From the IMG/VR virus record IMGVR_UViG_3300031087_000015, positions 1-64,000 of that record: a stretch of 64,000 nt of DNA; one strand, written 5' to 3'. The DNA comes from a virus. Under the pieces are notes generated by a model. It worked only from the letters and a program-made list of their open reading frames with translations. It had not been told where the DNA came from and did not search any database. A program made the position numbers and the translations under genes. Below are positions 5,651 through 57,660 of this stretch, piece by piece (position 1 is the stretch's first letter; each line of letters opens with the position of its first letter).

Positions 5651-5657
5651 ATAAGCA

Positions 5658-12806: not shown

Positions 12807-12864
12807 TGTGGCCTAAACTCCAGTAGGTTATAAATTACACAGAAACTTCCATATCATTAATAGC

Positions 12865-12911
12865 GGCATAAGAAAAAAGAGGAGTAGTGAGTTCCGTATA
12901 CCCACTACTCC
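12865..12911 (-). terminator. Intrinsic terminator after vRNAP gene
   Basis: GGAGTAGTG...CACTACTCC stem with a - strand U-tract followed by TTATGCC. Confidence 0.75.
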
Positions 12912-12945
12912 CGAGCAGAGCTACAATGATAATTTGAGCATATAA

Positions 12946-18240: not shown

Positions 18241-18257
18241 GATTTTATTCCTTAAGA

Positions 18258-24525: not shown

Positions 24526-26708
24526 TTAAAGATCCCCTTAGCGCGTTTGCCTAAGCTACGCATGCTGATACCACAGCACCACATGATGTGTTTGATGAAT
24601 TGGATAGCACGGTTACCACCCAACGGCACTTTATTACGATCAACAGCCAGCTCAATTTGGGCAGGGTTCTTAGCTTCCAGAATACTACGAACTTCTGCTT
24701 TGTGTGCAGCTGGGTTGTTCGGACGATCCAGAAGGTCAGCAACGACATAATCTGGGACCAATGCCAGCAGGAGCCGAATCTCTGCTTCACCAGTAATACG
24801 AACGGCGTTCTCACGACCAGGAGTAGAATGCTTGTCCATATTCGTCATACGAGCAAGGATACCGAAGTGTTGGCGTTTTGGTGACGCAACAGAACTCCAG
24901 TCAAAACCATTCTTCTCCAGCATGATGATGTAGGTCTCACCGATCAACATCTTCTGCTTGGTTGTGGTAAAGTTGCCATTAGAGTCACGATACGTAACCG
25001 GATGCATCTCCAGTCCATATCGCTGCTCCAGGCGGTCGATGATTGTTGCGCCGATATCCTCAGTGTGTGGCGGAAGCCACAGATAGATTCCATCTTGACA
25101 AACGGCACCTACATGACTCTTGCGATATTCCGGGACACTTGAAATCTCACGACGCATTAGCTCGGCCATTAACGGACTAGCAATGCTGTAATATTCCATT
25201 AACTCGTCATATGCCTGGTCTACGAGGTTCTGGTTGTTCAGCGAACCACCTACGCCAGCCATGGCTACTACGCCCTGCACACCCATGATCTCACGAACAC
25301 GTCGTGTCATCTGAGCACCAAAGGCATTCGTTGCCTGTTCGAACACACCGCCTAAGTTCATCCTTTTGATGTTGGAGTCATTATCCATCACCAGGTCAGC
25401 GGTTGTACCGTCTGGCCACTTAGGCATATCTTCAGGTTCACGAATCTGTACAATTACGCCCTTACCACCGTGCATGGTTGTAACTTTAGAACCGACTGAA
25501 GGGATGATGTCATATTTGAACACAATCTCAGTACGGAAGTCACCCACCGGTGCACGGCGATATGTCATGTTGACACGAGCGCCATCTGGCTGTTGAACCG
25601 ACTTATGGTTAGTGAAGGCATATGCCCACACAATCATCCGATGTAGATTCGGATGCAGAATGAGTTTCTCACCATGTTGGCGTTTCAAAGATTCATACAG
25701 ATCGATCAGCTTGTTTTGCTGGGCGAGTAAAGTTTCGTAATAGCGACGACTCTGCTCATCAATTCCTTTTGGTGTTTTCTCTTCATTATTCACACGGTCC
25801 AGATTATGGTCGTGGAATACCGTGACGTCGATAACTTCTGCGCCAGGCTTACCATAGACCAGTTGGTCAAAGATATAGTCTGGTTCAGCCAACGCCTTCT
25901 CAGTCATATCAACTACAGCCAACAGCTCGTCATACTCGCGGATAGCATAGACGATGCCGTGTGGTGCGATCTTCTGACCGATCTCGGGGTGTGCCCTGTA
26001 AACCCCATTGGAGCTATAAAGACCGATAGGATAACAACGATTACCCCACGTACCCACACGCGATTCAATGCCTACCGATTTGTAGCGCTCCAACCACGCA
26101 CGGTTTGCTAACACACCATCCTCAATGGTTGTATGTAGCGACATGTAAATCATTTTAGAACTAACGCCGGTTCGATAGTTACCAAACTGATCGATAGATG
26201 GACTGGTTGCAATAACCATACCTTCTTCAGCTGGACCATCTTCTACCAGCATCGACATTCTGTTGCCCTTCGGTTTATACATAAAACCAAAGTACTGATG
26301 TCGGATGTTATACGTCGACACGTCCATAACACCAAAATATGCTTTGTTAGGATACTTTGGATTGTTCGAACGATAGACGGCAAGCTTTTGTGGATTATAA
26401 CTAAAGCGATAAGCACCTTGGGTTGGATACTTATCGATGACGCGAATGAAACGACCTTCCTCGGGTATTTTCTGTTGGAATGTATAACGACCGTATTCCC
26501 GCTCTACACCAGTCAGGGTACGGCGAACACTTGGGTCTGCAATTACAGGCACCTGAGACAGATGACTGGTATACATCTGTGCACGAGATGCTGAATCATT
26601 TGCGGCCCACGGGTTAGTATTCGACCCGCCACCTAGGTTGTTGACGTGGAGTTCATTGGTCTTCCCAACGATTGACTCTACCCCAAACAAATCACTGTGC
26701 TTTTCCAC
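24522..26708 (-). CDS. Non-virion RNA polymerase beta C-terminal subunit (phiKZ gp71-73-like), uninterrupted
   Basis: DSASRAQM..SHLSQ, IEDG, GSKVTTMHGGKGVI, KRMNLG, RITGEAE; GTG start with GAGGAG SD. Confidence 0.92.
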   Translation of the reverse strand: MEKHSDLFGVESIVGKTNELHVNNLGGGSNTNPWAANDSASRAQMYTSHLSQVPVIADPSVRRTLTGVEREYGRYTFQQKIPEEGRFIRVIDKYPTQGAYRFSYNPQKLAVYRSNNPKYPNKAYFGVMDVSTYNIRHQYFGFMYKPKGNRMSMLVEDGPAEEGMVIATSPSIDQFGNYRTGVSSKMIYMSLHTTIEDGVLANRAWLERYKSVGIESRVGTWGNRCYPIGLYSSNGVYRAHPEIGQKIAPHGIVYAIREYDELLAVVDMTEKALAEPDYIFDQLVYGKPGAEVIDVTVFHDHNLDRVNNEEKTPKGIDEQSRRYYETLLAQQNKLIDLYESLKRQHGEKLILHPNLHRMIVWAYAFTNHKSVQQPDGARVNMTYRRAPVGDFRTEIVFKYDIIPSVGSKVTTMHGGKGVIVQIREPEDMPKWPDGTTADLVMDNDSNIKRMNLGGVFEQATNAFGAQMTRRVREIMGVQGVVAMAGVGGSLNNQNLVDQAYDELMEYYSIASPLMAELMRREISSVPEYRKSHVGAVCQDGIYLWLPPHTEDIGATIIDRLEQRYGLEMHPVTYRDSNGNFTTTKQKMLIGETYIIMLEKNGFDWSSVASPKRQHFGILARMTNMDKHSTPGRENAVRITGEAEIRLLLALVPDYVVADLLDRPNNPAAHKAEVRSILEAKNPAQIELAVDRNKVPLGGNRAIQFIKHIMWCCGISMRSLGKRAKGIFK

Positions 26709-30079: not shown

Positions 30080-31650
30080 TATTCCTGTACTCCTGCTTTA
30101 TGATTATTAAGTTTGATGATGAACGCCGCTACCTGCACTTTGAAGTCCGAGGGAATCAGATGACCACCGGAGCGATACGGACGCATGGTGACTTGTGCCA
30201 AAAGTTCCTGTGGTGCATTGAGCAGATAAGGACGACCGTCAAATAGCGAAAAGAGTTTTTCTATCGCTATCATCGCAGCATTCTCAGAACGCTGCTGTTC
30301 ACCGGTATCTTTCTTTCCACTACTCCTTCTGTGGTAGAAGGGATACTGTTCTTTCAAGATCCGGAATTGCTCGTTTGTTACACGACTACGGGTATCCGTT
30401 CCGAAAACCATATCGTCGTCCATAATAGAAGGCTCAGCTGTTAATAAAGACGCCAAGTCGTAGAAGCCCCAGTGCCAATAAAGCGCCTGTGCTAATCCTA
30501 TCATGTTCACACGCTCTGGTTGTTCCAGGGCTGGAATGAAACGCGCTTTCAACGCAGCGTCAACTGCCCACTGCGTCAGCGCAATCTGACCATCGGTTGG
30601 CAGATATCCGTTATTGCGGCGCAAGTGGCCAACACACGCATCGACCATATCCATCGGTAGTGACGGATCAATAAGACGCCGTGCGTTTGCAACACCCTTT
30701 GCGTACTTCCATGCCAGCAGAAACTTATAGTCGTTGATCTGCTGCTTAACGATTATTTTCTCAGCTTGTGATTCCTTATCGTCATCACGATATTCCATCC
30801 CGTCCGGCTTCTTACGCACCTGACCATCAAACTTACGGTCAAGGCTAGTCAGGGTGGTTTCGATCTGACGGAAAATGTTTGAAACGATGTTAGTGCTTGA
30901 GTTGTACTGAGAGAACAGTTGACCATCTGGCCTTCTGTGCATTACAACACCGACACACACCTTTCGAATGAGTACTACACCAAATACCCAATCTTCCAGC
31001 TCAGCACTACCGATACCTGCGACGATTGCAGACATGGTAATCTTGGCTGTATCTACGTTCATGCGAACATAGCGTTGGAGCTTGTCATAGTCTGCGGTAT
31101 GAATCAGCTCCGTGTGATTCATCAGACCCATTGCCATGAACTCTTTGAAGTGAGTTCCTGACGTTTTCTTAGATTCGCGTACGAATAAGTTCCAGATTGG
31201 AATCATCGGACGCAGTGCTGTAACGAGACAGATTAGCCCCATGTAGTCGTCACGCAGATACGTGCGGTCAGAACTACTGTACTCACCCATCGCCGTTTGT
31301 ATCTCGTTTGGCACGATGATATTACAGTGCAAACGGACAAAGCGCGCAAGGTCAGCATATGACCAGCAACTGTACAATTCAGCAACCAGAGCCACTACGC
31401 GCTCGTGCAAACGAACATCGTTAAACGTCGTTAAGAACGCTTCTTCGATATCCGAATAGATACGCATGATACGATCTTGTACGTCATCAGGTAACGTACC
31501 CCAGAATGCATTGATGTCCATAAACAACTCACCCGTCGACGGGAAAGGTGTGCGGTCAAAGATGCTCCCCTCAGAGACAATTCTTTTCCCTTTATGCTCA
31601 ATGACAATGCCGGTCAATTTATCGCTATTGTCTAGCGGATAGATCTCCAC
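30079..31650 (-). CDS. nvRNAP promoter-specificity (sigma-like) subunit (phiKZ gp68-like)
   Basis: 523 aa, GTG start with GGAGGT SD, own early promoter, synteny. Confidence 0.7.
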   Translation of the reverse strand: MEIYPLDNSDKLTGIVIEHKGKRIVSEGSIFDRTPFPSTGELFMDINAFWGTLPDDVQDRIMRIYSDIEEAFLTTFNDVRLHERVVALVAELYSCWSYADLARFVRLHCNIIVPNEIQTAMGEYSSSDRTYLRDDYMGLICLVTALRPMIPIWNLFVRESKKTSGTHFKEFMAMGLMNHTELIHTADYDKLQRYVRMNVDTAKITMSAIVAGIGSAELEDWVFGVVLIRKVCVGVVMHRRPDGQLFSQYNSSTNIVSNIFRQIETTLTSLDRKFDGQVRKKPDGMEYRDDDKESQAEKIIVKQQINDYKFLLAWKYAKGVANARRLIDPSLPMDMVDACVGHLRRNNGYLPTDGQIALTQWAVDAALKARFIPALEQPERVNMIGLAQALYWHWGFYDLASLLTAEPSIMDDDMVFGTDTRSRVTNEQFRILKEQYPFYHRRSSGKKDTGEQQRSENAAMIAIEKLFSLFDGRPYLLNAPQELLAQVTMRPYRSGGHLIPSDFKVQVAAFIIKLNNHKAGVQE

Positions 31651-31688: not shown

Positions 31689-31704
31689 ATAATATATATC
31701 TCAA
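31689..31704 (-). promoter_or_regulatory. Putative early promoter of gp68-like/picA operon
   Basis: TTGAGATATATATTAT. Confidence 0.7.
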
Positions 31705-39398: not shown

Positions 39399-39437
39399 TT
39401 TGGACTCCTTAAACCTGACAGTTTTACTTGTCAGGTG

Positions 39438-42506: not shown

Positions 42507-44702
42507 TTACTGACCGTACCAGATGTTGCCAGACTGTGGTGCAGCCGGACCACGGTTGCTACGAGCCGGAGAGCTGTAACCGTAGGTGGTCAGGTTGTTC
42601 TGAGGCTTAGCGCCCTGGCCGAATTCGTTAGCGTAAGAGAACGCCATACGATCGTCACCACGCGCAACACGGTCAGCTTCAACCACGTTGATAGTAGTGC
42701 CACATTCAGCGATTGCGTTAGCCAGCGCGTACAGGAAGTGTGCGTTGAAAGTGATACGGTTAGCGTAACCAGTGATGGTTGCGTTAGGTACCAGCTCCAT
42801 GATGATCTTCTCACGCTCTTCCAGAGACAGCGCTTCGTTACCGTTGTAGCTCGCCATCGCATTAGCCCATTTCTGAGCAATGGTGCTGCCGTTCTTACCG
42901 GTCTGGTTCAGAACTGCCAGGTGGTCGATGTTACGCAGGTCAACCAGCTGATCGTTGTCCGGATAGTGACCCAGGTGTACGCGGGTTACTTCGTTTGCAA
43001 CAATCTTGTTGTTCTCACCGAAGTGGCGAGAGAACGCATTGCCGGTCAGTGCATCAGCAGCACGACGGATGTACGAACGAGCAGCTTCACCTTCAGGACC
43101 TTTGTCCGCACACGCCAGCAGCGCAGCTTCCATCCAGGTCAGGTCGCCAGCTTCTTCGATATCCATGCTGTACAGCAGGTTATCTTCCACAGTGTGGTTC
43201 AGGAAGTCAGGCAGGTTGAAGGATTTATCCTGAGTATCGATCTTAGCACGCTGGCCAGGTACGAACTCATGCTCGTAGCCCAGAGCACCGATGTCGTGAA
43301 TATCTTCGACGCCGCGCTTAGGCTGGAACGCATTGATCCAGTTGTAGTTAGAACCCAGAACAGTGGAGGTCGCCAGAGTCAGCAGCATTTCGCCGACGTT
43401 GATGACTTTGCCCATTGGACGGTTACGCGTGATGACCATGCGTGGGAACCATACTACTTTCGCATTCTGCGGAATGCCGTAGCTTGCGTAGGTCTGCTGA
43501 CCGTTGTTGTCCATGCGAGGTGGTGCGTACACCAGATCGATAAACGCGGCCAGTGCAGTTACCGGACGGGTAGCTACGTTCTGAGTCAGGTTGGCAGTCG
43601 CTTTGTTGCCAGAGCGAATGGTAGTTTGCAGCACTACGTCAGAACGGATTGGCAGACCAGCTGCGGTTTCCATTGCGCGAGCACCCCAGACAGCCTGAGC
43701 ATGCAGAGTCTGTGCGATCTTCTCGAAACGACCATCACCCAGAGGTTTAACCAGGCTCAGGAATTTCTGAGAACCGAAGCGCACGTCAGCGGCGGTGTTC
43801 AGTGCACCCAGTGCGAAGAACAGCAGGTTACGAACGTACTTAGCGTTTTCCGGATCTTTCAGGTCCAGAGACTTAGGTACGACGTTAACGCCGGCAGACA
43901 GTACTGCTTCTTTGGTGTTCAGCACGCGCTGGACGTGGCTGGTGATCAGCTGCGCTACCGCATCGTTGAAGATATCGCCGGTTACAGATGCGATCTGGAT
44001 GCTGTAGTTGCCCATGTTGTAGCTGCGACGCTCCAGCGGCTCTGCGCTTTCCATCAGCAGGGTGAATAGCAGTGGGATACGACGACCGTCTTTCTGTGCG
44101 TGCATTACAACACCCAGGGCGTTGCATGGCAGACCCAGAGTTGCCGCTTCCAGAGTCAGGAACATCGGCTTACCGTATGCGCCTGATTTAGAGCTGGCCG
44201 GATCGTTGTCGATGATGTTCTCAGCGATCTTCTTGAACTCGTTGACGTCTACCGCGCCAGAGTTCAGACCCAGCGTACGATCCATGTTGCTGTAAGAGTC
44301 ATCCAGACCGTAAGTTCCGAAGTTCTGTGACATGTTCTTTTCCTCTTTATATGTGTTCTGAGTGTTTTGTGATGCTACGGGTGCCACGCGAGCGGGCTGG
44401 ATTGTTTCGCGGTGTTGACGCGCTGGTTCAGCATGCGGAGTGTGATGTTCCGCACGGTCTACCAACACACCTTCCACTGGTTGGGGTTCTTTCGGTTGCT
44501 GTTGTGCAGCAGCCTTCTGCTGATTGAGATTAGTAGCCGTTTTGACTACAGTCTCCGCCAGATGCGTTTCGCTATCTTTAGCTACCGCATCAAGAAAAGC
44601 TGAACCTAAGCTGCCAACGTGTCCGGTGTCATCAGACTTAATTGGCTCTTCAACTTTCGGCTTTTCAGATTGGTCTTTATCTTTATCGTGGACAAGTGCC
44701 AT
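42507..44702 (-). CDS. chmA: Chimallin, major phage nucleus shell protein; alternative start at 44333
   Basis: Immediately upstream of nvRNAP beta'N; motifs FPRMVIT, DIEEAGDLTW, VHLGHY...DLRNIDHLAVLN; strongly biased codon usage; TATATTAC promoter. Confidence 0.85.
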   Translation of the reverse strand: MALVHDKDKDQSEKPKVEEPIKSDDTGHVGSLGSAFLDAVAKDSETHLAETVVKTATNLNQQKAAAQQQPKEPQPVEGVLVDRAEHHTPHAEPARQHRETIQPARVAPVASQNTQNTYKEEKNMSQNFGTYGLDDSYSNMDRTLGLNSGAVDVNEFKKIAENIIDNDPASSKSGAYGKPMFLTLEAATLGLPCNALGVVMHAQKDGRRIPLLFTLLMESAEPLERRSYNMGNYSIQIASVTGDIFNDAVAQLITSHVQRVLNTKEAVLSAGVNVVPKSLDLKDPENAKYVRNLLFFALGALNTAADVRFGSQKFLSLVKPLGDGRFEKIAQTLHAQAVWGARAMETAAGLPIRSDVVLQTTIRSGNKATANLTQNVATRPVTALAAFIDLVYAPPRMDNNGQQTYASYGIPQNAKVVWFPRMVITRNRPMGKVINVGEMLLTLATSTVLGSNYNWINAFQPKRGVEDIHDIGALGYEHEFVPGQRAKIDTQDKSFNLPDFLNHTVEDNLLYSMDIEEAGDLTWMEAALLACADKGPEGEAARSYIRRAADALTGNAFSRHFGENNKIVANEVTRVHLGHYPDNDQLVDLRNIDHLAVLNQTGKNGSTIAQKWANAMASYNGNEALSLEEREKIIMELVPNATITGYANRITFNAHFLYALANAIAECGTTINVVEADRVARGDDRMAFSYANEFGQGAKPQNNLTTYGYSSPARSNRGPAAPQSGNIWYGQ

Positions 44703-44758
44703 CTTTTCATTCCTTAAACATTGCAATGTTTTCGGTTAGTCCTATACCAACCACTAAG

Positions 44759-44774
44759 GTAATATATACTTGAA
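44759..44774 (-). promoter_or_regulatory. Early promoter of chmA
   Basis: TTCAAGTATATATTAC contains the phiKZ early consensus TATATTAC exactly. Confidence 0.75.
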
Positions 44775-46113: not shown

Positions 46114-48240
46114 TTAATGGCGATCAGATATCAAATTACTAATGCGGTCGTCAACGTTAATATAGTAACCTAATGATTCCAATACCAGGTAGTACGCCTC
46201 CATCGTGTTATAGATGATTTTACGCACGTCGATGATACGGGTGATCTCAGGTGGTACACCAGATGACATGACGATGTTTGCTGGCAGCATGATCGTTGTC
46301 ATTGATGTCTTGTCGTAGCGAGCTGCCCAGGTTTTCAGACGCTCGGCCAGGTCCTTATCTTCGATACCTTCAATCCATCCATTGAAGCCAGTTTTGTTAT
46401 TGGCTGCTACTGATGCTTTGATGGCGAAGAACGGAGGTGGATCAGAATGGCCGTATTTATCGGCAAATACCTGCTCCCACAACTCGTAATACGCATACGG
46501 TGAACTTTCTGGTTTGGTATAGAACTCAGGAGCTTTAACCTGTGCTGTGGTTAAGTAACGAGTCTCACCGTTCAGAATACTGTTCTGGATCTCACGCTCA
46601 CGATCGGCAACATCTTTGAGGATCTGCTGCAAATCGATCTGCTCACCGCGAAGGATGGTATCCATGATATCACGGATAAGCTGGGTAGCGCCATTCATGA
46701 TCTCGTCTGGCACTTTGGAGTTCTTAAGCGTTACGCCTTTGACTTCCAGCTCAGGTTCAGTATACACGTTGCCTTCACGCGCTGACATGTATGCAAAGTA
46801 GTGCTTAGCACGCGGTGTCAATGCGAATACAGGGAACATATATTCGTTCTTCATGGAGACCTTGTGGATCTTCTCCGTAACAATACCCATGTTACCAGAG
46901 ATAACTGCCAGGTAATGCTTAACCAGCTGGGAACTGAAATACACCACGATACTTGCGATATCGTTAGATGTTTCAGTGAAGTCCAACTGACCGCGATACC
47001 AGATTGCCCAGTCCTGTACAGTAAAGATGGTTGAGTCAGTATCTGACACGACCGCAGTACGACGAACAGACGACGGGAAGTCTGCAAGTGAGGCAGGAAC
47101 GTTGTCAGTTACCATGAAAGCAGCGTAGTAGGTTGCATACGAAGCAATAGCATCCATTACACCCTTAGCGATAGAAGCAACTTTCTGTAAACGTTCGCCG
47201 TCTTCTTTAACCACGTCCCAAATAGTCGAGCCATTCAAGATGCTACCACAGTAAAGACCAACCAATGCAAACTGGTCGTCATCCAGCGCTTTAATAACAG
47301 CCACCGGATCTTCTACTGGCTCAGTGCGCTTAGTAATCAGACGCGTTAACATCTCACGCATGAACGCCGGGTTGAACTCTTTCAGGTTCCACAGGTCGCC
47401 CATATAACAGAACGCAGCCCGTTGAATTGGTGACAAGCGACTAACCAGTTCAGCAACTTGTGCAAACTTGTCATCAGCGCGCCAATACAAATCGGTAGAG
47501 CGCTTAATGGTGGCCAGGGTTTCTTCAACAGAGGGATAATGAAGATTGAACTCATCCATTGCACGCTGGATCTTCACGTAGTCTGAGTTAGAGACAATCG
47601 AGATGATATTGCTCAGCGTGATATCCAGGTTGTAGTAATGACGGTTGCCGGTAATGAAGCGCTCGTTAGAGGCGTTAGCGGTACCCGATGCAGAACGACA
47701 CACTGAAGTCAGAGTTGAGTGTGAGGACTTATTGTAAAGTGGGGTAGATGCCGATGCGTGAGCACCTGACAAACTGTTGTTCTTTACCTTATAAGTCGTT
47801 TGCAGAATGTTGAAGAAAGTTTTACCTGCTTTGTCACCCGCCATATCAGCAAGGAACATCTTCTTCTTAACATCCTTACGTTTGGCCAAGTTCAATAAGA
47901 TATATTCGGCCAGCAGTGAACGCTTCTCAGCGGGGTTAAAGTAAACTGCCATAGTTGGAGACATGATGCAATTGCGCTCACTCACGGTACGCAGATAACC
48001 CGATACGGTACCTGTATACACATCGCGGTTGCCTTCTGTCTCTTTAGCCAGGTACAGAACACGAGGATCTTTAAACTCATGGCTACCACCAGGACTAATT
48101 GCCGCTTTGACTTTCTCATAGCACTCTTCGTACGGTAATCCTTTCTTAATAGAAAGATACGAAGCTGCGTCGTGCAAGTAGTGCTTAACCATATCAAGGT
48201 CACGACCGTATGACTCTTGTGGTTGTGTAAATAACTGCAT
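46114..48240 (-). CDS. Split family-B DNA polymerase, catalytic subunit with motifs B and C (phiKZ gp50-like)
   Basis: KVKNNSLSG (motif B), SDTDS (motif C), KHY, LEVKGV; start at ATG 48240 with GAGGA SD. Confidence 0.88.
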   Translation of the reverse strand: MQLFTQPQESYGRDLDMVKHYLHDAASYLSIKKGLPYEECYEKVKAAISPGGSHEFKDPRVLYLAKETEGNRDVYTGTVSGYLRTVSERNCIMSPTMAVYFNPAEKRSLLAEYILLNLAKRKDVKKKMFLADMAGDKAGKTFFNILQTTYKVKNNSLSGAHASASTPLYNKSSHSTLTSVCRSASGTANASNERFITGNRHYYNLDITLSNIISIVSNSDYVKIQRAMDEFNLHYPSVEETLATIKRSTDLYWRADDKFAQVAELVSRLSPIQRAAFCYMGDLWNLKEFNPAFMREMLTRLITKRTEPVEDPVAVIKALDDDQFALVGLYCGSILNGSTIWDVVKEDGERLQKVASIAKGVMDAIASYATYYAAFMVTDNVPASLADFPSSVRRTAVVSDTDSTIFTVQDWAIWYRGQLDFTETSNDIASIVVYFSSQLVKHYLAVISGNMGIVTEKIHKVSMKNEYMFPVFALTPRAKHYFAYMSAREGNVYTEPELEVKGVTLKNSKVPDEIMNGATQLIRDIMDTILRGEQIDLQQILKDVADREREIQNSILNGETRYLTTAQVKAPEFYTKPESSPYAYYELWEQVFADKYGHSDPPPFFAIKASVAANNKTGFNGWIEGIEDKDLAERLKTWAARYDKTSMTTIMLPANIVMSSGVPPEITRIIDVRKIIYNTMEAYYLVLESLGYYINVDDRISNLISDRH

Positions 48241-48302
48241 TTTATTTTCCTCACTGTTTACTACGCATACCATCAGCAAGGAAAGTAAAAAAAGAAAAGA
48301 GG

Positions 48303-48409
48303 CATAAAAAGACGGTCCCCGAAGGGACCGTCGAAACGCGCTATTTAAGGAATGTGTACAGCCTAAGGTCCCCCGTTACCCGTAGCGCCCCTGACACAGA
48401 CTGTAACAC
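48303..48409 (-). ncRNA. Candidate sRNA 'sR48'
   Basis: Promoter AAAAGTTGTTAC with 20 nt to the G of TATG; 5' stem GUGU(U)ACAGUCU/AGGCUGUACAC; unpaired AUUCCUUAAAUA; UUCG terminator 48311-48332. Confidence 0.6.
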
Positions 48410-48418
48410 ATATAATAG

Positions 48419-48838
48419 TTAATTTACAGTAACAACTTTTGCCACTTTATTACCGGTGGTAGCAATTGCTGCTGTAATCGCGTTGATGACGTCCTGGTTA
48501 CAGTTCTCGACGTAGAACGCCATGGTGTTATTATCGATAACGGTGATCGAGGCTGGGATAATGTACGGTAAGCCTACGAAGTCTACCGATCCATTGGCCA
48601 GTCTAACCTTTAACCAGTTGTAGTCATCGGCACTAGCTGGGGTACCAGCAGGCAGTGTACCGTAAACATTGGCGTGAATAGCGTACGGATCAAATCCCGC
48701 TTGTTTAACCGAGTCTGCATCAACGATACCCAGGATTTTGCAACCGCTGTAATCTGTGCGGATGATGTTCTGGGTTTGTTGGTACAGAGAGAAGTTCACG
48801 GTGTCGCGGATATTTGCTTTGCCTAACACATCCATCAT
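48419..48838 (-). CDS. Conserved small protein (phiKZ gp49-like, SH3-like beta fold)
   Basis: 139 aa, GGAG SD, immediately upstream of the DNA polymerase gene. Confidence 0.65.
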   Translation of the reverse strand: MMDVLGKANIRDTVNFSLYQQTQNIIRTDYSGCKILGIVDADSVKQAGFDPYAIHANVYGTLPAGTPASADDYNWLKVRLANGSVDFVGLPYIIPASITVIDNNTMAFYVENCNQDVINAITAAIATTGNKVAKVVTVN

Positions 48839-55399: not shown

Positions 55400-55508
55400 G
55401 CATAAGGGGTACCCAATTAAGGGTACCCCTAGCGGCAGCGTAAGTAATGGAGGTGAGGGTCAGCGCGTGAGGTCGCTTTACTGCAATTGAGGGATTACAG
55501 TTTTCTCC
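55400..55508 (-). ncRNA. Candidate trans-acting sRNA 'sR55' (antisense to nvRNAP subunit RBSs)
   Basis: Promoter AAAAAATTAC with 20 nt to the G of TATG; two hairpins with CCUCA loops; 18-nt perfect complement of the gp68-like RBS; terminator 55405-55430. Confidence 0.72.
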
Positions 55509-57429: not shown

Positions 57430-57660
57430 ATGACTCCTTTTAGCGGTGGCTTACGGCCACCTAAATGGAATGGGTTGCCTTTAAACGTCCAGACATACCG
57501 TTAGTCAACAAGTGACTAACTAAAAGGATAGATACTACGTATCTAATTAGTTTATAGTAAAATTCTCCCTTTGTTTGGCGTTTGTTTTGTCGCTCTACCC
57601 TTTCGAGTAGAGCGTGTCGCAATTAAGCATAGAATCATGCTAGGCCAGTAAAGAATTACT
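57430..57660 (-). promoter_or_regulatory. Promoter plus ~200-nt multi-hairpin leader or ncRNA
   Basis: TTTAC with 20 nt to the G of TATG (57628), then four hairpins before the RBS. Confidence 0.45.

Follow-up and report, generated by a model that had tools for sequence, protein, structure and literature searches.

Short RNAs that run from a promoter to a nearby terminator are abundant in the phages phiKZ and 201phi2-1 (PMC10914365, PMC11512511). Using ONT-cappable-seq and Northern blot, 17 "5'UTR-derived ncRNA candidates" (non-coding RNAs from 5' untranslated regions, UTRs) were described in phiKZ and 11 small RNAs (sRNAs) in 201phi2-1, none of which was assigned a target (PMC10914365, PMC11512511). 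Here we describe a candidate RNA of this type, named sR48, in the IMG/VR virus record IMGVR_UViG_3300031087_000015. It covers positions 48409-48306 on the minus strand (104 nt) of the analyzed stretch of 64,000 nt, referred to as the window, which is the first 64 kb of a 142-kb contig (~52% complete). Between two hairpins sR48 exposes an unpaired stretch that is complementary to the ribosome-binding site (RBS) of chmA, the gene for the nuclear shell protein chimallin. The existence of the sRNA is probable; that it targets chmA, or more generally early genes, is plausible but unproven.

Like the short RNAs of phiKZ and 201phi2-1, sR48 belongs to a nucleus-forming jumbo phage. Its predicted promoter is followed by a terminator within at most 250 nt, both upstream of a gene on the same strand, it contains no open reading frame (ORF) led by a Shine-Dalgarno (SD) sequence, and its position and fold are conserved among relatives. 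Unlike these RNAs, sR48 is followed by a gene which has promoter-like sites of its own. No sequence homology between sR48 and the described RNAs was found (none in Rfam; the region upstream of the polymerase gene in phage SL2 is unrelated). For the phiKZ and 201phi2-1 RNAs there are expression data but no proposed target, whereas sR48 has a proposed target but is known from sequence alone.

The locus was pointed out by a first-pass annotation of the window, and all sequence elements named there are present. The interpretation given, an sRNA acting on the chmA RBS, is partly supported. For comparison, three homologues of the RNA unit were available: Erwinia phage pEa_SNUABM_54 (SNU54), which is the sole close isolate and has a 272-kb genome, and the metagenomic contigs L016, close to SNU54, and L015, whose polymerase is 95% identical. 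Together with the window they are referred to as the four homologues. sR48 has a minimum free energy (MFE) of -39.5 kcal/mol (z = -2.9 vs shuffles). The fold starts with a 5' stem-loop (48354-48409, RNA positions 1-56), on which the MFE folds of the four homologues agree. Its lower stem, annotated with 11 bp, begins with G+1 and has 12 bp by fold (4+8, one bulge). A single-stranded linker of 21 nt follows (48333-48353, RNA positions 57-77), in which the probability of being unpaired is at least 0.9 in the four homologues. The invariant block ATTCCTTAAATAGCGC (48353-48338) sits within this linker. The 13-nt seed named in the annotation (48354-48342) was said to be single-stranded. This holds for 12 of the 13 bases, because C48354, the first seed base (RNA position 56), is paired with G+1 in the window fold. 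The unit is closed by the annotated intrinsic terminator (48306-48332), recovered in a terminator scan, with a 9-bp stem containing 7 G-C pairs, a UUCG loop (hairpin 48332-48311) and a T5 tail.

A coding function was considered and rejected. The unit contains no SD-led ORF of 10 or more amino acids (aa); its sole ORF has 11 codons, begins at the ATG of TATG and lacks an SD, and a 2-nt indel in L016 breaks the frame while the nucleotide blocks are kept. Neither Rfam, applied to the 64-kb window at gathering score, nor a scan for tRNA and tmRNA genes (ARAGORN) returned a match. A likeness to a tRNA T-arm (GGTTCGATTCC in SNU54) was discarded, as the stem has only 2 bp and the sequence is missing in the window. 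The same applies to a UAGCGC/GCGCUA pseudoknot seen in the window, which is not kept in SNU54.

All four homologues fold alike, with a stem from the predicted +1 and the same block left unpaired. The window and SNU54 are 73% identical at the RNA locus on the DNA level, 74% in the DNA polymerase protein and 52% in the ChmA protein. Between these two, four pairs of the lower stem differ by double compensatory changes (U2-A to A-U, G3-C to A-U, G9-C to C-G and U12-A to C-G), and the 5' stem contains wobble switches besides the double changes. The terminator stem has compensatory changes in SNU54 and L016. The pairs were compared from single-sequence folds, since RNAalifold gave a poor consensus on the MAFFT alignment because this alignment is not structural. 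The unpaired ATTCCTTAAATAGCGC is the longest block that the window and the SNU54 lineage share without change. Its 16 nt are identical in the window, SNU54 and L016; it is altered in L015. In the 5' stem-loop, unpaired GUGUCAG and CUACGG are also conserved. sR48 is probably a real discrete RNA, or at least an RNA released from a 3' end. Viral, metagenome and genome collections were also screened for further homologues, using the polymerase, ChmA, the leader, the seed 16-mer and two structured patterns; only L015, L016/L004 and L020 came up.

The proposed target TGTTTAAGGAATG lies in the chmA leader (44708-44720, minus strand) and covers the SD AAGGAA at 44715-44710. The pairing is exactly as described in the annotation: the seed (48354-48342) and the leader (44720-44708) form 11 Watson-Crick pairs, followed by U-G and A-U, and the duplex spans 6-18 nt upstream of the chmA ATG at 44702. 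For the seed 11-mer, the 142-kb contig and the 272-kb SNU54 genome each contain a single exact complement, in both cases at chmA. The window and SNU54 agree in seed and target, save one end pair. The leader block AAACATTGCAATGTTTAAGGAAT is identical in the window, SNU54, L016 and L020. The last of these provides a third variant beside the target but lacks the RNA locus. A scan with a 15-mer of the leader was uninformative, as this 15-mer is palindromic and common. ACATTGCAA was tried as a recurring leader motif and dropped, its one extra copy in SNU54 being coincidental. Pairing of the RNA with the SD of the polymerase gene itself was rejected as well, as it reaches only ~7 bp.

The first-pass annotation had warned that SDs of this kind are common and that specificity would require statistics, which were run here. 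Among the 190 predicted start regions of the window contig, chmA ranks first with the 13-nt seed (-15.1 kcal/mol). In the complete SNU54 genome it ranks first of 328 with either the 13-nt seed or the 24-nt unpaired stretch (-16.0 and -22.0 kcal/mol). chmA is the only top target for which complementarity is kept in both phages. When the TTCCTT core was fixed and the flanks were shuffled, 2-3% of the seeds reached the energy observed for chmA, and 3-6% found an equally good match to some start region (13-nt seed, or SNU54). Dinucleotide shuffles of the chmA start region gave p = 0.007. In the controls with a preserved anti-SD core, p lies at ~0.02-0.06; specificity for chmA is modest, and the evidence for this target is moderate.

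Several other candidates were examined and rejected. Gene 24525 (670 aa) reaches -20.8 kcal/mol via a 10-nt GC-rich match which is not kept in SNU54. This match joins TAGCGCGTTT, from the 3' half of the unpaired stretch, to 24539-24548 (minus strand) and has the best duplex energy with the 24-nt seed. At contig positions 132444-132456 (L148:945-957, beyond the window), ATTCCTTAAATAG forms 13 Watson-Crick pairs, a longer match than that to chmA. It lies on the RBS of a 167-aa gene at contig 132438, behind an early-type promoter, and is not kept in the SNU54 orthologue. Conversely, SNU54 gene 00162 offers 13 Watson-Crick pairs that are not kept in the window orthologue. The weaker matches listed in the annotation, at 39404-39414 and 18247-18255, were found again, and both genes do lie behind early-type promoters. 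First genes behind early-type promoters occupy ranks 1, 3, 4, 5 and 8 of 190 with the 13-nt seed, and in this early-gene ranking the real seed beats ~97% of the core-preserving shuffles.

The promoter proposed by the annotation was borne out in part. The 12-mer AAAAGTTGTTAC (48440-48429), the TATG and the distance of 20 nt from the C of TTAC to the G of TATG are all in place. The recurring part of the 12-mer is its TTAC (48429-48432, minus strand), located in the last codons of the upstream 139-aa gene. It is followed by the start-site motif TATTATATG (48409-48417, minus strand), with TATG at 48412-48409 and G 48409 as the predicted +1, giving a TTAC-N16-TATG arrangement. In the contig, 12 of the 22 matches to TTAC-N14-17-TATG are intergenic, vs 8.4% intergenic DNA. 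The 12-mer as such is C-terminal coding sequence of the upstream gene and does not recur (3 matches at up to 2 mismatches vs 6.7 expected). ATTATATG, directly 3' of the stop codon in non-coding DNA, is invariant in the four homologues. In SNU54 the equivalent of the predicted +1 is MW879341 position 220976. The non-virion RNA polymerase (nvRNAP) of phiKZ starts transcription at the G of TATG, and phiKZ middle promoters carry AAanTTACc centred near -24 (PMC4666361). The annotation had assumed late timing, which is not supported: TTAC at ~-23 together with TATG at +1 is the phiKZ middle layout (PMC4666361), and SNU54 lacks the TTAC. By analogy, the sR48 promoter would be of middle type, not late. 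TTAC-N14-17-TATG also precedes ordinary genes, including the polymerase gene (transcription start site, TSS, 48266), and the intergenic TSSs predicted at 12939, 32158, 48409, 55508 and 73650 are located 115-207 nt upstream of the next gene.

The sR48 terminator is a member of a contig-wide class of hairpins followed by TTTATGC(C), present at 24 intergenic sites. GC-rich hairpins directly followed by this motif are found for example at window positions 5651, 12284, 33843, 52081 and 60113. The arrangement looks like a combined terminator and TATG start signal at the borders of transcription units. At the sR48 locus the corresponding motif TTTATGCC (48301-48308, minus strand) overlaps the terminator tail and holds a second TATG. 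Distant relatives also have it upstream of their polymerase gene, and its G 48303 is likely the start site of the DNA polymerase transcript. A further promoter-like site of the polymerase gene, TTAC-N15-TATG, is located at 48266-48288 (minus strand), 26 nt before the ATG at 48240. Its T-run and TAC are conserved in all relatives. The polymerase gene therefore appears independent of the sRNA promoter. The RNA unit, whose predicted start 48409 lies 169 nt from the polymerase ATG, looks like an inserted, independent transcription unit.

Non-coding units upstream of the polymerase gene were also found in the distant chimalliviruses L017, L018, SL2 (phiKZ-like) and Goslar, with unrelated sequences. 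RAY and Moabite have a terminator only at this position. Hairpin-bounded units with pyrimidine-rich stretches resembling an anti-SD lie just upstream of the polymerase gene in L018:4750-4900 (a metagenomic contig), L184:380-640 (Goslar) and L182:525-640 (SL2). The L018 contig does not contain chmA.

Based on the phiKZ model, the RNA polymerase of the phage itself would start sR48, an RNA of ~100 nt, at the G of TATG, from a promoter of the phiKZ middle type whose upstream element lies inside the end of the preceding gene. Transcription would end at the UUCG intrinsic terminator, which would also close the upstream operon. The 5' stem-loop and the terminator hairpin would then flank an unpaired anti-SD stretch of ~21 nt. 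After export from the phage nucleus, sR48 might pair with the RBS of the early chmA mRNA (-18 to -6) and, more weakly, with the similar sites of UUUAAGGAAU type that belong to other genes in first position behind early promoters. Such pairing would block 30S binding and lower the amount of shell protein made once the middle phase has begun. Our tentative reading, for which we would claim somewhat less than an even chance, is thus a middle-phase sRNA that dampens chmA, and perhaps other early genes, by occlusion of the RBS.

A number of findings weigh against this reading. With the 24-nt unpaired stretch as seed, chmA falls to rank 2 of 190 in the window contig (-19.1 kcal/mol), and 53% of the core-preserving shuffles match some start region equally well. 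Any seed with a TTCCTT core already favours the start regions of early genes as a class. The one apparently compensatory end pair, C:G in the window vs G:C in SNU54, is formed by non-homologous RNA positions and, within the window fold, is in competition with the G1-C56 stem pair; decisive covariation of seed and target was not seen. The duplex is AU-rich, with a net energy after opening costs of ~-6.5 kcal/mol in the window and -9.6 kcal/mol in SNU54. In SNU54, ATTATATG is kept but TTGT stands in place of TTAC. In L015, the closest relative, compared to the window, ~6 changes fall into the 24 nt of the unpaired stretch vs 2 into the 56 nt of the stem. Its chmA leader is identical over the last ~135 nt, and the contig end then cuts inside AAACATTGCAATGTTTAAGGAAT. 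The L015 seed differs from the window at 2 of 13 positions; 11 pairs are still possible if the chmA target is unchanged. This pattern may reflect either relaxed constraint or co-evolution with a target beyond the contig end. Individually, the changes in the unpaired stretch (L015:4830-4935) are A to G, one extra A, GCGCG to GCATG and two further inserted bases. In L017, SL2 and Goslar, the positional analogues do not match the chmA of the respective genome, so that any link to chmA would be specific to the clade of the window. The leader could also be conserved for another reason. Directly upstream of the chmA SD, and partly within the proposed target, lies a perfect 14-nt palindrome, AACATTGCAATGTT (44717-44730, minus strand). 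SNU54, L016, L020 and the visible part of L015 have the identical sequence, which could fold into a weak hairpin or be bound by a dimeric protein. Finally, the RBS consensus of the phage is ATAAGGAA(T/A/C), with TAAGGAA in 36 of the 190 start regions and TAAGGAAT in 10, and therefore any anti-SD RNA will find partners.

Part of this evidence would be expected if sR48 were a real sRNA whose meaningful target is not chmA. It could act on other RNAs, such as host mRNAs or as a general anti-SD competitor, or bind a protein (Hfq, ProQ, a ChmC-type RNA-binding protein or a nuclease), and the chmA match would simply follow from an anti-SD core with AU-rich flanks. We consider this possible, if somewhat unlikely. 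The widespread consensus, the weak net pairing energy, the differing L015 seed and the perfect 13-nt matches of gene 132438 in the window contig and gene 00162 in SNU54 all fit such an RNA, and GUGUCAG and CUACGG, conserved and unpaired, may point to contacts with a protein or to tertiary contacts. Against this explanation, chmA alone is kept in both lineages and is top-ranked in SNU54, and outside the core the match of the flanks to chmA is better than in 97-98% of the shuffles. It is unlikely, in our view, that there is no separate RNA at all and that the upstream operon (genes from ~52000 to 48419) simply ends here with its 3' UTR and terminator, with an unused TATG and a conserved block that is a processing or stability element or has no function. 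The invariance of ATTATATG in non-coding DNA argues against this, as does a 5' stem which, in the distant analogue L017 as well as in the four homologues, starts exactly at the predicted +1. The promoter class is overrepresented between genes, and its intergenic copies at TSS 12939, 32158, 55508 and 73650 suggest similar short units. Even a 3' UTR would contain the exposed stretch, which could be released by processing. In favour of a mere 3' UTR are the missing TTAC in SNU54, the coding and non-recurrent nature of AAAAGTTGTTAC, the ordinary, contig-wide type of the terminator and the near-neutral rate at which the unpaired stretch drifts in L015. Two further explanations involve the neighbouring genes. 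Of the 42 phiKZ terminators located in 5' UTRs, 34 give rise to both a short RNA and an mRNA by read-through (PMC10914365). The unit could act in cis on the DNA polymerase gene, as a leader or attenuator with stop or read-through from 48409 and the unpaired block as the site where a factor sets this choice; the factor might be the polymerase itself, in analogy to T4 gp43. The conserved position of a non-coding unit upstream of this gene in L017, L018, SL2 and Goslar is in line with this idea. We regard it as quite improbable, given that the polymerase gene has its own promoter-like sites 3' of the terminator (48303 and 48266), that both hairpins are present in the MFE and centroid folds and no alternative anti-terminator fold was found, that RAY and Moabite carry a terminator only, and that the positional analogues are unrelated in sequence. 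Least probable is a protein site on the DNA level, in which the shared 11-13 bp would be inverted at two loci flanking the polymerase gene and the neighbouring 363-aa gene. The same double-stranded sequence does occur at loci 3.6 kb apart, and the chmA copy adjoins the perfect 14-bp palindrome, typical of dimeric DNA binders. However, all copies in both genomes sit on SD sequences, which is the simpler explanation, the palindrome is missing at the sRNA locus, and the RNA structure around the sRNA copy covaries.

The window contains a sibling unit with the same promoter layout as sR48 (TSS 55508; 55400-55508, minus strand). At the same RNA position as in sR48, 18 nt of it are perfectly antisense to the start region of a 523-aa gene at 31650, which lies behind an early promoter at 31698. 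This match raises the prior for a trans action of such RNAs in this phage. The sibling also carries UCACCUCC, which is identical to part of the 16S rRNA 3' end. Further ORF-poor stretches that follow TTAC..TATG and end with a hairpin and TTATGCC are located at 12860-12945 and 57440-57628 (minus strand) of the window and at contig 73450-73656; the unit at 12939 comprises ~70 nt. These stretches may represent more small RNAs. A quick exact-match scan of them gave no strong target. A wider version of the dampening model can be imagined, in which sR48 is one arm of an RNA-based switch from early to middle phase. Exported sRNAs with middle-type promoters (TSS 55508, 48409, 32158 and perhaps others) would each silence the first cistron behind an early virion-polymerase promoter, among them chimallin, non-virion RNA polymerase subunits and others. 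This extension is doubtful. If it were true, antisense RNAs and not proteins would set shell growth and transcription capacity. In the MFE structure of the chmA leader (44702-44760, minus strand), the 5'-proximal CCUUA of the early-promoter consensus ATTACCTTAG pairs with UAAGG of the SD, and the same is found in SNU54. According to this folding model, the SD of early mRNAs may be self-sequestered.

The contig derives from a nucleus-forming jumbo phage. All features of the RNA unit as well as chmA are located on the minus strand, in the order 139-aa gene, RNA unit and DNA polymerase gene, followed by a plus-strand gene and then chmA. The 139-aa gene (stop at 48419) belongs to phrog_3235 and has no assigned function. 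The DNA polymerase gene downstream of the RNA unit (46114-48240, 708 aa) was identified by phrog_2927 (E 7e-254) and by tblastn to annotated jumbo-phage DNA polymerases. chmA (42507-44702, 731 aa) matches PF25677 and phrog_4795, nuclear shell protein (E 6e-88), and was confirmed by tblastn to annotated chimallins. It is the first gene behind the early-type promoter TATATATTAC (44768-44759).

Shell growth should be determined by the amount of chimallin, the protein that builds the phage nucleus. To our knowledge, no mechanism that limits chimallin synthesis following the early burst has been described. sR48 provides a concrete target hypothesis which is testable in a cultivable relative, pEa_SNUABM_54. 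If the hypothesis is true, chmA would be the first target for any sRNA of a nucleus-forming phage. If the chmA reading fails, sR48 is still a well-defined conserved RNA.

In organization, sR48 is similar to bacterial sRNAs. Type I sRNAs embedded in 3' UTRs, like DapZ or MicL, have their own sigma-dependent promoter and act with Hfq. As in DapZ and MicL, the predicted promoter of sR48 is located within the end of the preceding coding sequence, the terminator is shared with the mRNA, a conserved single-stranded seed is located 5' of the terminator hairpin, and occlusion of an RBS is proposed. Unlike theirs, the sR48 promoter is of the phage RNA polymerase type. A functional parallel is known from phage T4, in which the endoribonuclease RegB and the RNA-binding protein RegA both shut off early mRNAs. 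Here as well, early messages would be silenced at their SD regions once the next phase starts, but the proposed agent is an antisense RNA. In phiKZ, antisense oligomers directed against the SD and AUG of chmA abolish ChmA synthesis and nucleus formation (PMC12571901). The chmA RBS is therefore sensitive to occlusion. These oligomers are synthetic, of the peptide nucleic acid (PNA) type, are supplied before infection and block completely, whereas sR48 would come later and probably only dampen synthesis. Trans-acting sRNAs of phages and prophages have been described with DicF, which acts on the ftsZ RBS, VpdS of VP882 and PreS of lambda (PMC12197685). In a review of phage sRNAs from 2025, validated trans-acting cases come only from temperate phages and prophages, and jumbo phages are not mentioned (PMC12197685). 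Like DicF, VpdS and PreS, sR48 would be a phage-encoded RNA that pairs with the start region of an mRNA and shifts translation towards the phage programme. Those RNAs are of temperate phage or prophage origin and act mostly on host genes, whereas sR48 would act in a virulent, nucleus-forming phage on an early structural gene of its own. If true, this would be an example of a virulent phage that controls its own early genes by antisense RNA.

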